Of a DNA stretch of 64,000 nucleotides, positions 2,610-28,494 are shown piece by piece. Source of the stretch: a virus; IMG/VR virus record IMGVR_UViG_3300014913_000007, positions 64,001 to 128,000 of that record; one strand, given 5' to 3'. The notes below the pieces were generated by a model, which worked only from the letters and a program-made list of their open reading frames with translations, was not told where the DNA came from and made no database searches. Position numbers and translations under genes: made by a program. How positions within the stretch are numbered: position 1 is the stretch's first letter; the number at the start of each line of letters is the position of its first letter.

Positions 2610-3227
2610 CTACGCTCCTAAAAACTCCATATCAACAGATACATTTACCTTCATAGTAGGTATACCTATTTTATCTATTAAACCTAGTTTTTTGGCTTGT
2701 TTACTAGTTAAATACCAATTAGTATTACCTCTTTCTTTTAACTTATCAAAAAAGTATTTACGATCCAAAGCACAATTAACAGCTAATATTTTGTATAATT
2801 CTTTTTTCAATCTTTCTGAATTTTCTACAGATACTTTCATATCTTCTACTTTTCCAATAGTTCCAGCACTAGCATCATGTACCATTATGGTGCAATTTGA
2901 ATCTGCAAATCTGTATCCAGGGGTACCACTACTCAGTAAAACTGCTCCACAACTCATGGCTTTACATAATCCGACTGTTGCTACTGGTTTTGAACTTCTC
3001 TCGATTAGAGATAACATTCCCATGAGTGTATATATTTGCCCTCCTGGGCTATCTATTAATATAGGAATAATAGGTTGATCCGGGTTGGACTCTGCCCTAT
3101 CAAACTTCTCTCTAAATATTTCAAAAGACCTGGAATTAAAATCAGTAACATTAATTACTGTAGGCATATCGAATAAGTCTGATTTTCTATAATTTATAGA
3201 GTTGTCTACTTCAGTTATGATCTTCAT
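2610..3227 (-). CDS. clpP: ClpP-family protease
   Basis: IDSPGG, AMSCGAVLL (catalytic Ser), MVHD (His), YLTSKQAKKLGLID. Confidence 0.88.
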   Translation of the reverse strand: MKIITEVDNSINYRKSDLFDMPTVINVTDFNSRSFEIFREKFDRAESNPDQPIIPILIDSPGGQIYTLMGMLSLIERSSKPVATVGLCKAMSCGAVLLSSGTPGYRFADSNCTIMVHDASAGTIGKVEDMKVSVENSERLKKELYKILAVNCALDRKYFFDKLKERGNTNWYLTSKQAKKLGLIDKIGIPTMKVNVSVDMEFLGA

Positions 3228-8030: not shown

Positions 8031-8408
8031 CTACTGACTTTCTTTGTTAACCCATTTCCCTTTTACATCTCTAACCTCAGTCTTAATGTTCTTAGGATTC
8101 ATTTGTTCTTCTACTATCTCTTCTATAGATGGCTTACCCATAAGCTCTGCTGATTTTATCTTTAACCACATCTTAAAGGTATCTGTATCTAGCATACGTT
8201 TGAAGGCACTTTTTTTATTAAGTAACTGACTCTTAGAATCCCTTGCCTCACCCCTAGCTCCTGAAGCATGGTGAATTACTCTAGCTCCTGAGTCTGTCTT
8301 ATTCTGATGCTGTCCACCAGGTCCTCCAGATCTAAAGGTCTGAACTTCACAGTCCTTAATTGAAACTGAAAATAATAACTCTTTCTTTTTATTAGGTTTA
8401 TTCTTCAT
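8031..8408 (-). CDS. GGQ peptidyl-tRNA hydrolase / release-factor homolog (ArfB/PrfH-like single domain)
   Basis: FRSGGPGGQHQNKTDSGARVIH motif. Confidence 0.88.
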   Translation of the reverse strand: MKNKPNKKKELLFSVSIKDCEVQTFRSGGPGGQHQNKTDSGARVIHHASGARGEARDSKSQLLNKKSAFKRMLDTDTFKMWLKIKSAELMGKPSIEEIVEEQMNPKNIKTEVRDVKGKWVNKESQ

Positions 8409-11903: not shown

Positions 11904-11950
11904 TAAATTATTAATCAAACAATTTAGTTCGGGTAGAAGAAAGCAAATTT

Positions 11951-12025
11951 GGCGGGAAGGACGTTGGCTTCCAGTAGTGTCTCATAAGCATTATTACGCT
12001 GGTTCAATTCCAGCTTCCGCAACCA
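11951..12025 (+). tRNA. tRNA-Met(CAT), initiator-like 1:72 mismatch
   Basis: cloverleaf; loop CTCATAA; G1:A72; CCA encoded. Confidence 0.8.
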
Positions 12026-12044
12026 TTTTATTAACTTAAATTCC

Positions 12045-12185: not shown

Positions 12186-12186
12186 T

Positions 12187-12258
12187 ACACTTCTAGTCTT
12201 GGGACAAAGGAAGCCTCCAAAACTTCTAAGCAGAGTTCGAATCTTTGGGAGTGTGCCA
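12187..12258 (+). tRNA. tRNA-Trp(CCA), short D-arm
   Basis: loop CTCCAAA; GTTCGAAT T-loop; CCA. Confidence 0.8.
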
Positions 12259-12259
12259 T

Positions 12260-21388: not shown

Positions 21389-21469
21389 ATGATTACAAGA
21401 ATGATTTCTTTATACACTTCTTTATGTACCTCTTATCTAGAGGAACTCGAATATCTATATCTAAAATAA
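21389..21469 (+). CDS. leaderless leader peptide of tRNA array 2, MITRMISLYTSLCTSYLEELEYLYLK
   Basis: ATG at predicted +1; residues 16-25 are all L/Y/E and one Cys is present; array encodes Leu x3, Cys, Tyr, Glu. Confidence 0.8.
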   Translation: MITRMISLYTSLCTSYLEELEYLYLK

Positions 21470-21480
21470 GGTAAACTTCA

Positions 21481-21549
21481 CATAAAACTAAACGCACTTC
21501 TGGCCCAGTTTTATGGGAAGGAGATAAGTGTATTTAGTTTTTGTTTTTT
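21481..21549 (+). terminator. candidate attenuator with alternative hairpins
   Basis: AAAACTAAA-C-GCACTT/AAGTGT-A-TTTAGTTTT with U-rich tail, competing with CATAAAACT/AGTTTTATG. Confidence 0.6.
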
Positions 21550-21553
21550 ATTA

Positions 21554-25794: not shown

Positions 25795-25864
25795 AATTAT
25801 TATTATTCCCTCATATTAAAATTTCTTTTAATATTCTATAGTACATTACCAAGTTAAATATTTC

Positions 25865-25893
25865 TTGACATACGTTAATATCTGTACTATAGT
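25865..25893 (+). promoter_or_regulatory. sigma70-type promoter of tRNA array 3
   Basis: TTGACA-17 nt (ending TGTAC)-TATAGT. Confidence 0.85.
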
Positions 25894-25899
25894 ACATTT

Positions 25900-25983
25900 A
25901 TGATGTTATCTATTTGTAACATATCTTTTGACTTTGCCGTATTCAACGGTACAGGAATCACCTCGGGAACTGGCACACATTAA
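25900..25983 (+). CDS. leaderless leader peptide of tRNA array 3, MMLSICNISFDFAVFNGTGITSGTGTH
   Basis: ATG at predicted +1; 8 of the last 11 residues are G/T; array encodes Gly and Thr. Confidence 0.8.
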   Translation: MMLSICNISFDFAVFNGTGITSGTGTH

Positions 25984-26050
25984 GTGTAAACTGTCAGGAT
26001 CCATCTAACAAATAAGTTTAAAATTTAATCTGGATACTGGCGGTACTAAT

Positions 26051-26410
26051 ATGATCGTATTTGGAGTTTGTTACATGAGTAGATCACGTAGAAAAAAACC
26101 TATCATCAGACACGGTGGTAGTGATAAGTGGTGGAGAAGGAACTACAATCGTAAACTAAGAAGAGCTAATAAGGTACTCTTACAGAAACAGAAGGAAGAT
26201 TTCCTACCTAAATTAGTTAGAGAAGTTAGTAATGTTTGGGATAGTAGTAGAGATTGTACTTTTAGATTTACTTATCTAAAGGATGGTAACTTATGTCATC
26301 TAAGTAACGTTGGATTCTGGGCTGATTTTTATGGAGTATCTATAGAAGAGTATATAGAGAAAGAAAAGAAAGAAGCTAAGGAGGAATACAACAAATGGAT
26401 GAGGAAGTAG
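26051..26410 (+). CDS. basic hypothetical protein inside tRNA operon 3 (likely start MSRSRRKKP at 26075)
   Basis: GGAG RBS precedes the second ATG; Arg/Lys-rich. Confidence 0.7.
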   Translation: MIVFGVCYMSRSRRKKPIIRHGGSDKWWRRNYNRKLRRANKVLLQKQKEDFLPKLVREVSNVWDSSRDCTFRFTYLKDGNLCHLSNVGFWADFYGVSIEEYIEKEKKEAKEEYNKWMRK

Positions 26411-26556
26411 AGTACAAGAAAACTAACAGGGAGAAGGTACAGACTCCTAAGTTAGGTATATTCTATTGCACATGTGATAGAGCTTTAGTAGGAAAGGGGA
26501 GGAAGTGTAAGTTTTGCGGGACTAGAGATCCTGGTAAAACATTTAAAAAATAATAT

Positions 26557-26629
26557 CCTGGAATGAGGTTAATGGTTAGCCTGTCTGACTTCCAATCAGA
26601 ATGCGTCAGTTCGAATCTGGCTTCCAGGA
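26557..26629 (+). tRNA. tRNA-Gly(TCC), atypical acceptor
   Basis: TCTGA-CTTCCAA-TCAGA; GTCAG-TTCGAAT-CTGGC T arm. Confidence 0.8.
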
Positions 26630-26634
26630 CTCCT

Positions 26635-26707
26635 GCTCGAATAGTATAAGTGGGCAATACACTGGTTTTGTAATCCAGAATTTTCGGATCGTGGCCGAAT
26701 TCGAGCT
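26635..26707 (+). tRNA. tRNA-Thr(TGT)
   Basis: loop TTTGTAA; acceptor GCTCGAA/TTCGAGC; atypical T-loop. Confidence 0.78.
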
Positions 26708-26748
26708 AATTATTTGACATTACTTAGTATTTATAATATAATAGTTAA

Positions 26749-27117
26749 ATGTCCAAACTTAAAGTCTGTAAACAATGTGGAAAAACTTTCCCCAAATCAG
26801 GTATGTACTTAGGTAAGTGAAGGAACTTCTGTAATAGGAGTTACTTTCTTTTATGCTCCTCAACTAGGTTGGCCAGACAGTATTTACTGGAGAAACATGG
26901 AAACAAGTGTTTTCAATGTGAAGTAACCGGATGGAATGGACGGCCAGGACCTGTAGTTTTAGATCATATAAATGGAAACCCTTATGATCATAGTTTAGAA
27001 AATATTAGATTGCTCTGTTGTAATTGTGATGCACAAACTAATACATATAAAAACAAAAATAAAGGTAAAGGCAGGCACACTAGGAGATTACGATACAAAC
27101 AAGGTAAAAGCTACTAA
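26749..27117 (+). pseudogene. HNH endonuclease with in-frame TGA at 26818-26820
   Basis: ATG 26749 follows TTGACA-17-TATAAT and is in frame with track ORF 26869-27117: MSKLKVCKQCGK...GK*RNFC...LDHINGN...NIRLLCCNCD. Confidence 0.75.
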
Positions 27118-28446: not shown

Positions 28447-28494
28447 TCAAACAAACAATTCAATTAGGGTAGAAGTAATTAAGTAAATAAATTT

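Follow-up and report, generated by a model that had tools for sequence, protein, structure and literature searches.

A leader open reading frame (ORF) rich in Gly and Thr codons was analysed together with the operon that it heads, which continues with a gene for a small basic protein and ends with genes for tRNA-Gly and tRNA-Thr. The operon occupies positions 25,865 to 26,707 of a 64,000-nucleotide stretch of DNA from an uncultured large phage, i.e., positions 64,001 to 128,000 of the IMG/VR record IMGVR_UViG_3300014913_000007, and this whole stretch is called the window. The pattern of substitutions among homologues showed that the leader ORF is a selected frame, predicted to be translated, and that the distal Gly/Thr run is its conserved feature. 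The two tRNAs that close the unit on its 3' side serve the same two amino acids, Gly and Thr. The comparison also supported the view that the leader, the basic-protein gene and both tRNAs form one conserved transcription unit. Our preferred reading, which is tentative and falls a little short of an even chance, is that the unit is a translational attenuator similar to those of the erm and cat genes. The speed of Gly/Thr decoding would be sensed, and translation of the basic protein and of an overlapping zinc-ribbon ORF would be the output. The evidence is computational throughout. The layout of the unit is as follows (nt, nucleotides):

25865–25893, plus strand: sigma-70-type promoter, TTGACA-17-TATAGT with TGTAC directly before the −10 box, 11/12 matches.
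25900–25983, plus strand: leaderless leader ORF of 27 codons with stop codon TAA; homologous ORFs of 27–28 codons occur in the relatives L001, L004 and L002.
25948–25977, plus strand: Gly/Thr run, codons 17–26, with 4 Gly and 4 Thr, recognised from composition and the homologue alignment.
26075–26410, plus strand: basic-protein gene, 111 amino acids, N-terminus MSRSRRK, 28 Lys and Arg, isoelectric point 10, from a large unannotated phage family.
26395–26553, plus strand: ORF of 52 amino acids with a zinc-ribbon-like CxC...CxxC pattern and its own AAGGAGG, overlapping the end of the basic-protein gene by 16 nt.
26557–26630, plus strand: tRNA-Gly(UCC), Rfam 57.1 bits, beginning 3 nt past the stop codon of the zinc-ribbon ORF.
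26635–26707, plus strand: tRNA-Thr(UGU), Rfam 46.7 bits.
26714–26742, plus strand: next promoter, a perfect TTGACA-17-TATAAT, taken as the downstream limit of the unit.

The relatives (L001, L004 and L002/L003) were retrieved from metagenomes through the basic protein, without use of the leader, and homologue comparisons refer to four sequences, i.e., the window, L001, L004 and L002. The basic proteins of the relatives were 54–67% identical to that of the window, so these loci are not copies of a single sequence duplicated in assembly. The promoter, an ORF of 27–28 codons, the hairpin, the Shine–Dalgarno sequence (SD), the basic protein and a directly abutting tRNA-Gly(UCC) were all kept.

The last 11 codons of the window's leader (GGT ACA GGA ATC ACC TCG GGA ACT GGC ACA CAT) encode 4 Gly, 4 Thr, Ile, Ser and His. 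For the whole peptide, 8 of 26 residues were Gly or Thr, compared with 3.3 expected (P = 0.013), and among the 512 short ORFs of the genome, no second one contained a span with 8 Gly or Thr in 11 residues. The leaders of the relatives contained 10/26, 12/27 and 11/27 such residues (P = 8e-4 to 5e-5). The block of L001 comprises tRNA-Gly(UCC), Gly(GCC), Thr(UGU) and Thr(GGU), and 10 Gly or Thr residues are present in its leader. The first-pass annotation, made from the letters of the window only, had argued that the match between leader and tRNAs was not fortuitous; the uniqueness of the run and the stronger enrichment in three relatives speak against a chance match. A chance open frame behind a strong promoter in AT-rich DNA, incidentally rich in Gly and Thr, would suit the whole-peptide enrichment of the window's leader taken alone, which reached only P = 0.013. 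However, the conservation of the ORF, the enrichment in the relatives, the uniqueness of the run and the limitation of the promoter subclass to tRNA blocks make such an origin scarcely credible.

The tail of the leader carried the signature of coding selection. The motif G-T-G-x-T-x-G-T-G-x-H-stop was common to the window, L001 and L004, and the tail of L002 was also Gly/Thr-rich and ended in G-T-G-R-H-stop. In pairwise comparisons of the tails, substitutions at the third codon position outnumbered those at the other two positions (8 vs 4 and 4; 6 vs 3 and 1; 7 vs 2 and 3; 10 vs 3 and 6), and the aligned Gly and Thr residues were kept through synonymous changes. Because of this third-position excess and the synonymous retention of Gly and Thr, the leader was taken as a selected frame that is translated. 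It thus has the defining feature of trpL/thrL-type leaders, a short ORF with regulatory codons, its translation being predicted from sequence. A functional micropeptide of 27 residues, with a composition unrelated to the tRNAs, would explain why the C-terminal G-T-G-x-T-x-G-T-G-x-H is kept as amino acids in 3/4 homologues. Such a peptide is very unlikely, as the 16 N-terminal residues were poorly conserved, each of the four leaders, which differ from one another, corresponds to its own tRNA block, and in a relative of the Leu/Cys/Tyr/Glu leader it is the composition, not the sequence, that is retained. In a separate inspection by eye, a sigma-54-like reading of TGGCAC in the leader was discarded for want of a −12 element and of conservation.

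The leader belongs to a set. The record contains 23 tRNA genes, all of them inside the window, in blocks at 12.1–13.5, 21.5–22.1, 26.5–26.7 and 28.5–29.1 kb. The promoter motif TTGAC[AT]-N-GTACTAT[AG][AG]T occurred exactly four times in the 153-kb genome, and every copy headed a tRNA block. The four leaders were each enriched in the amino acids of their own block (P = 3e-4, 2e-4, 0.013 and 0.013), and the enrichment of a leader in the amino acids of the other blocks was never significant. A metagenome scan with the promoter and ATG, which was blind to the leader tail, returned 81 loci; the only relatives among them were L193 and L194, both with the Leu/Cys/Tyr/Glu block. In the relative of that block, the sequence of the leader differs, yet 17 of its 28 residues match the block. 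The restriction of the promoter to tRNA blocks and the enrichment of each leader for its own block only are stronger evidence against a chance match than the composition of the window's leader alone, and the relatives retrieved through the basic protein count most.

Some side observations were made in the other blocks. Two tRNA-like sequences, missed by ARAGORN and Rfam, were seen by eye on the plus strand at 11942–12030 and 12186–12259, with CAT and CCA at anticodon-loop-like positions. The leader of this first tRNA block also holds Met and Trp codons. A box, GGGTAGAAG, was present on the plus strand of the window at 11931–11939 and 28467–28475, and at 3003–3011 of L001. In two blocks, and in the homologous block of L001, the box precedes the first tRNA-like sequence by 10–25 nt. 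The window contains three copies, compared with 0.6 expected, and three were reached in 4 of 100 shuffles.

The boundaries of the unit were defined by its promoters. The leader ATG at 25900 is the seventh base past the −10 box, i.e., at the predicted transcription start, which leaves no room for an SD, and none precedes this ATG. The promoter was kept in L001, L004 and L002. No promoter-like site was found by the window promoter scan after 26150 up to the tRNAs, and the first tRNA begins 1–4 nt past a stop codon in 4/4 homologues; hence, both tRNAs are almost certainly co-transcribed with the leader and the protein genes. The tRNA array starts 574 nt past the leader stop. These positions agree with the first-pass annotation, whose leader codons, hairpin and two tRNAs were all located where it had placed them, and the contingency that it had named, a separate tRNA promoter after 26410, was not borne out. 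Homologues of the zinc-ribbon ORF were found in L001 (716–880) and L002, L004 lacks it, and a word-based homologue search with the 52-residue product returned only the self-match.

The close junction of stop codon and tRNA was noted in its own right at 26551–26560 of the window, L001:878–883, L004:794–799 and L002:2547–2552. After cleavage by RNase P at such a junction, hardly any mRNA would be left beyond the stop codon, and the 5' part of the tRNA would lie under a ribosome that terminates there.

One role for such a leader would be classical transcription attenuation: a stall at the Gly/Thr codons would allow RNA polymerase to continue into the tRNAs, the leader would thereby tune tRNA output, and the proteins would merely be carried along. 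Codon-matched leaders precede all four tRNA blocks, the Leu/Cys/Tyr/Glu block has a hairpin and U-run between leader and tRNAs, and the tRNAs of the Gly/Thr unit are without a promoter of their own, all of which would suit this model. However, no terminator-like site was found on the plus strand between 25984 and 26556, and the conserved hairpin behind the leader lacks a U-run in 4/4 homologues. Moreover, G exceeded C in every 80-nt window of the transcript, so no C-rich, Rho-type stretch and no apparent Rho loading was present, and 574 nt with two translated genes separate the leader from the tRNAs. Classical attenuation of the tRNAs was therefore not supported and is unlikely. A Rho polarity mechanism linking translation of the protein to tRNA output was considered and dropped for the same excess of G over C. 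The first-pass annotation had proposed that the leader controls the operon as a whole; one conserved unit with a Gly/Thr run under coding selection was recovered, whereas control of the tRNAs was not, as there is neither a terminator nor a Rho stretch. Instead, what is regulated is probably the translation of the basic protein, because two of the three conserved pairings, those that involve a functional signal, mask its ribosome-binding site.

In the Leu/Cys/Tyr/Glu block (21389–21553 of the window) and its relative (L193:787–967), the terminator-like hairpin contributes its 3' arm and U-run to a pairing with the 5' part of the leader in the minimum-energy fold. The Leu/Cys/Tyr/Glu and Gly/Thr blocks are alike in that the 5' half of the leader is the long-range partner of a downstream signal.

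The RNA elements on which a translational switch of the Gly/Thr unit would depend are listed below:

25903–25926, plus strand: 5' strand of a predicted long-range helix, leader codons 2–9, pairing with 26063–26084, a stretch that contains the SD and AUG of the basic-protein gene and its opening codons.
25937–25949, plus strand: small hairpin CCGN/NCGG within the leader, with its 3' end in the first Gly codon; paired in 4/4 homologues, with one compensatory pair (U-A to C-G).
25966–25974, plus strand: segment 1, GGA ACT GGC, codons 23–25, capable of pairing with segment 2.
25990–26003, plus strand: segment 2, the 5' arm of the stop-proximal hairpin; core arm 25993–26003, extendable to 14 pairs.
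26032–26045, plus strand: 3' arm of the hairpin; core 26032–26042, and 26029–26037 (segment 3) can pair with the SD region instead.
26057–26077, plus strand: segment 4, with the SD GGAG (26063–26066) and the AUG (26075), sequestered in both candidate folds.

The stop-proximal hairpin was the sole strongly significant structure. It was more stable than shuffled sequences (z = −3.0 for the window and −3.0 to −4.3 across 4/4 homologues) and contained three compensatory pairs. The stem had 14–17 base pairs (bp) with a conserved internal mismatch and a loop of 26–40 nt. In L002, the sequence of the hairpin was almost wholly different and its position was the same. The leader stop lay 1–9 nt before the stem in the homologues. 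An element for RNA processing or stability, in which the hairpin and the closing helix serve as cleavage or protection sites (e.g., for RNase III) that part the leader from the mRNA and tRNA precursor and the ORF is secondary, would account for the singular significance of the hairpin, its 14–17 bp stem and a closing helix of approximately 20 bp. However, this explanation is rather improbable, since the third-position pattern and the retained Gly and Thr denote coding constraint, and the constant placement of the stop just before the stem is relevant only if ribosomes arrive there.

Two maskings of the ribosome-binding site of the basic protein were predicted. In the consensus fold, 94.8% of cells were paired, compared with 34–40% for slid partners, with five compensatory pairs; the pairs of the long-range helix held in 94% of cells, with one compensatory pair. 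When the partner strand of the hairpin was left out of the fold, segment 1 paired with the 5' arm, and 26029–26037 then paired with 26057–26065, including the SD. These alternative pairings fell on homologous columns in 4/4 sequences (94.1% paired, compared with 34–46% for slid partners; three compensatory pairs). Furthermore, the leader tail of L002 fitted the divergent hairpin arm of L002 itself, at −13 to −14.5 kcal/mol, whereas its pairing with the arms of the other homologues reached only −6.6 to −9.3 kcal/mol. With moderate confidence, the fold models suggest that the ribosome-binding site can be masked either by the 5' half of the leader or by the freed 3' arm of the hairpin.

The influence of ribosomes on these maskings was explored in an equilibrium model. 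The probability that the SD–AUG region is unpaired was 0.09–0.35 without ribosomes and rose to 0.4–0.6 when ribosomes were placed over leader codons 2–10 or when a queue of two ribosomes behind a ribosome at codons 11 to approximately 20 was modelled. The Gly/Thr run starts about one ribosome footprint downstream of the mask in the 5' half of the leader, which fits such a queue.

According to the preferred reading of a translational attenuator, the unit would work as one early phage operon, with the promoter, the leaderless ORF, the hairpin, the basic protein, the zinc-ribbon ORF and the two tRNAs in this order. The ribosome would stall at segment 1, inside the leader; the strong hairpin would consist of segments 2 and 3, and segment 4 would hold the SD of the basic-protein gene. 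If the Gly/Thr codons were read fast, the run would be cleared before the 3' arm was transcribed; with the ribosome gone, segments 1 and 2 would pair, the freed 3' arm (segment 3) would cover the SD (segment 4), and no basic protein would be made. If a ribosome lingered on the Gly/Thr run, the hairpin of segments 2 and 3 would form and leave the SD free. Ribosomes following behind would queue over the 5' half of the leader, i.e., the second mask, which covers the AUG, so that both the SD and the AUG would be exposed. Translation of the basic protein and of the overlapping zinc-ribbon ORF would follow. With growing amounts of the operon's tRNAs, the stall would end and the basic protein would be switched off, closing a feedback loop.

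Several results weigh against this scheme. By strict wobble rules, the encoded tRNAs read only half of the Gly/Thr codons of the window's leader (GGA twice and ACA twice). The duplex of the long-range helix was moderately unusual (z = −1.7 to −2.7; P = 0.015–0.065 per homologue), and 3.2% of random genomic 36-mers paired equally well. The alternative hairpins, 1:2 and 3:4, were no more stable than shuffled sequences (z = +0.2 to −2.6). The alternative folds lay 4–7 kcal/mol above the ground state in 3/4 homologues and 16.7 kcal/mol above it in L002; therefore, only a kinetic switch would be feasible. A lone ribosome on the Gly/Thr codons left the accessibility of the SD unchanged in the equilibrium model, and opening needed a queue. 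The comparison comprised four homologues only, of which three are closely related, and these sequences were also the source of the structures. Finally, we infer the steps that lead from pairing to regulation, as well as the direction of the switch.

A generic coupling of upstream ORF to downstream gene, without codon sensing, could also operate. Any translation of the leader would open the masked start, and the tail would be kept for other reasons, e.g., as a G-rich strand for the hairpin arm. The 5' half of the leader does pair with the SD and AUG, and the codon choice of the tail leans weakly toward pairing with the arm (P = 0.06–0.19 compared with synonymous recoding). Furthermore, in an inspection of the 130 nt upstream of the family gene, tiny ORFs of 2–13 codons, too short for codon polling, were found to precede homologues of the basic protein at seven loci (L137, L143, L142, L144, L148, L150 and L128). 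At L137 and L143, the upstream ORF is ATG ATG TAA. Those of L142, L144, L148 and L150 have 10–13 codons, and ORFs of 11–13 codons ending in A-V-F were seen three times. At L150, the ORF has 10 codons, and its TAG lies inside a perfect 11-bp hairpin that covers the SD. As a family trait, such upstream ORFs also count in favour of the preferred reading. However, coupling of this kind leaves unexplained why the three other leaders, which have no protein gene behind them, are enriched for their own blocks, and why the amino acids rather than the bases of the tail are conserved. We consider it improbable.

Beyond the single unit, it is conceivable, albeit doubtful, that the phage carries codon-matched sensors of ribosome speed, one per tRNA block, and that the sensor described here turns on a tRNA-linked basic protein as part of a joint response to tRNA shortage. 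Such a shortage might follow a tRNA-cleaving host defence, and the basic protein would act on tRNAs or ribosomes until the phage tRNAs had restored decoding. In two reports, phage tRNAs are described as a counter-measure to tRNA-targeting defence besides their role as a codon supplement (PMC10264068, PMC11464382).

The basic protein that would be the output of the attenuator was characterised separately. The first-pass annotation had delimited its coding sequence as 26051–26410; the ORF exists, and its start is almost surely 26075 rather than 26051, because the later start is preceded by GGAG at a distance of 8 nt and thousands of homologues share MSRSRRK as their conserved N-terminus. When clustered at 50% identity, the family comprised 2,833 clusters at an expectation value (E) of at most 1e-3 and 1,178 clusters at E ≤ 1e-10. 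Its near-invariant features are an N-terminal MSRS, a central NRKLRR, EVSNVW, KDGK and a C-terminal RK.

Family genes occurred beside tRNA genes more often than expected. A tRNA on the same strand within 300 nt was found at 16 of 27 loci fetched through the protein alone, and at 14 of 24 loci after deduplication, compared with 4.0 expected from random placement within the same loci (P approximately 5e-6). No opposite-strand tRNA was present in the protein-fetched loci. In contigs with a single tRNA, this tRNA lay 20–55 nt upstream of the family gene. The family thus appears physically tied to tRNA genes across unrelated phages, an arrangement that would fit a tRNA- or translation-related role.

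The nature of the protein was pursued through sequence and structure. No match in Pfam, PHROG or NCBIfam was obtained for the protein or 55 family members, with ArfA and ribosomal proteins considered. The best sequence matches among solved structures reached only E = 0.067–0.095 (a calmodulin and ribosomal protein L15e). Two AlphaFold models had predicted local distance difference test scores of 67 and 78.5. Foldseek searches of the PDB and BFVD gave nothing at E ≤ 0.001 (E > 2), a wide VIA-align search gave only unspecific helical matches (best Z 4.3), and the ESM Atlas returned unnamed viral clusters only. The first-pass annotation had suggested an RNA- or ribosome-binding component of the response. 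The tRNA linkage lends circumstantial support to participation in a tRNA-related response, whereas binding to RNA or ribosomes found no family, solved-structure or fold match. Because of this linkage, our guess is that the basic protein may act on tRNAs or on translating ribosomes during tRNA shortage.

The genome in which the unit resides has no close relative in the phage collection searched. The viral record comprises 153 kb with 34% G+C and an estimated completeness of 78%, and the window is part of it. Among the products encoded by the record are a family A DNA polymerase, a DnaB helicase and a ribonucleotide reductase. Near-identical DNA was absent from the phage collection searched, in which the closest DNA polymerase relatives were only approximately 24% identical. 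This DNA was present in one sequencing run only, a sediment metagenome, and no RNA run was listed. Scans of IMG/VR with the DNA polymerase and with the basic protein alone returned no relatives. A scan of IMG/VR with the promoter pattern returned 117 loci, and the three with downstream tRNAs were rejected as unrelated chance matches. Searches with Rfam returned nothing but tRNAs: only the two tRNAs of the unit were found at 25800–26720 (E ≤ 5), with no T-box match, and only tRNAs were found in the whole window at the gathering threshold.

Further elements were noted around the unit and its relatives. Directly downstream, positions 26714–27117 of the plus strand contain the perfect promoter, an ATG at the predicted start, an ORF of 23 codons and a separate HNH fragment of 82 amino acids. 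This is probably a disrupted HNH endonuclease gene, and L001 has an intact HNH gene of 203 amino acids at this place. Between tRNA-Gly(UCC) and tRNA-Gly(GCC), the relatives carry structured elements other than tRNAs (L001:955–1140, L004:869–963 and L003:716–815), which are conserved and contain TTCTAG and GCTAG. The leader stop is TAG in the relatives with this element; it is TAA in the window, where the element is missing. A reading of the elements as suppressor tRNAs was considered, and relaxed ARAGORN calls were inconsistent. On the plus strand of the phage-like L002 contig at 131–465, a bacterial class-A RNase P RNA (RF00010, 188 bits, E 6e-60) was found 1.4 kb upstream of the Gly/Thr leader of L002; no RNase P RNA was found in the 153 kb of the window's genome. 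On the minus strand of the window at 8190–8372, a GGQ-type RF-1 domain ORF resembling ArfB and peptidyl-tRNA hydrolase was found (open frame of 127 amino acids, 56 bits). A similar RF-1 domain ORF (82 bits) lies at 833–1114 on the plus strand of L003, directly behind a tRNA-Gly and the odd structured element.

The unit may be compared with known leader-peptide systems. The enterobacterial transcription attenuators include thrL (with Thr and Ile codons), ilvL, hisL, trpL, pheL and leuL. Like these, the phage unit has a short 5' ORF with a distal run of regulatory codons, could poll more than one amino acid, and has hairpins behind this ORF. Unlike them, it has neither a terminator nor a U-run, its mRNA is leaderless, tRNAs and small proteins rather than biosynthetic enzymes lie downstream, and the pairings that involve a signal concern a ribosome-binding site. 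Where ermC, cat and cmlA are controlled by leader-peptide translational attenuation, the 2:3 pairing is favoured and the SD freed when a ribosome occupies segment 1. The phage unit is predicted to share these four RNA segments, with segment 1 at the proposed stall site of the leader ORF and segment 4 as the SD of the next gene. It differs in the proposed trigger, which would be slow Gly/Thr decoding instead of a drug, and in a second mask formed by the 5' half of the leader over the AUG. Furthermore, the 2:3 hairpin is the ground state here, so the closed state must be kinetic.

The pheM leader of pheST uses a terminator, and the T-box leaders of aminoacyl-tRNA synthetase genes recognise uncharged tRNA by direct binding and are represented in Rfam by models of their own. 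In both of these systems, as proposed for the phage unit, the supply of specific charged tRNAs sets the expression of a translation component; the phage unit has neither a terminator nor a T-box match in Rfam. In the thrU-tyrU-glyT-thrT-tufB operon of E. coli, Thr and Gly tRNAs, the UGU and UCC anticodons included, are co-transcribed with a translation-protein gene. Co-transcription of Gly and Thr tRNAs with a protein gene is thus common to both operons, whereas the E. coli operon is cellular, has no leader ORF and carries the protein gene after the tRNAs. In Salmonella, translation of the upstream ORF mgtQ, located between mgtC and mgtB, is reported to choose between stem-loops that hide the next ribosome-binding site, through acidic residues that destabilise the ribosome (PMC8092293). 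What mgtQ and the proposed phage switch have in common is a short upstream ORF, alternative stem-loops and a masked ribosome-binding site of the next gene. They differ in that the phage leader has a codon run matching co-encoded tRNAs and stands in a phage tRNA block, whereas mgtQ belongs to a bacterial chromosome.

To our knowledge, the regulation of phage tRNA genes is hardly known, and our literature searches returned no account of leader peptides preceding tRNA genes. A leader-peptide sensor wired to tRNA genes, together with an uncatalogued tRNA-linked protein family, would be a new form of a regulatory principle that is already known. In comparison with the other blocks, the sensor proposed for the Gly/Thr unit seems to act on a ribosome-binding site and not on a terminator. 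Moreover, the unit points to an unannotated family of small basic proteins, with at least 2,800 clusters, beside phage tRNA genes. If the proposal is true, a leader that reads the decoding speed of codons served by its own tRNAs would be a simple feedback sensor of tRNA supply.

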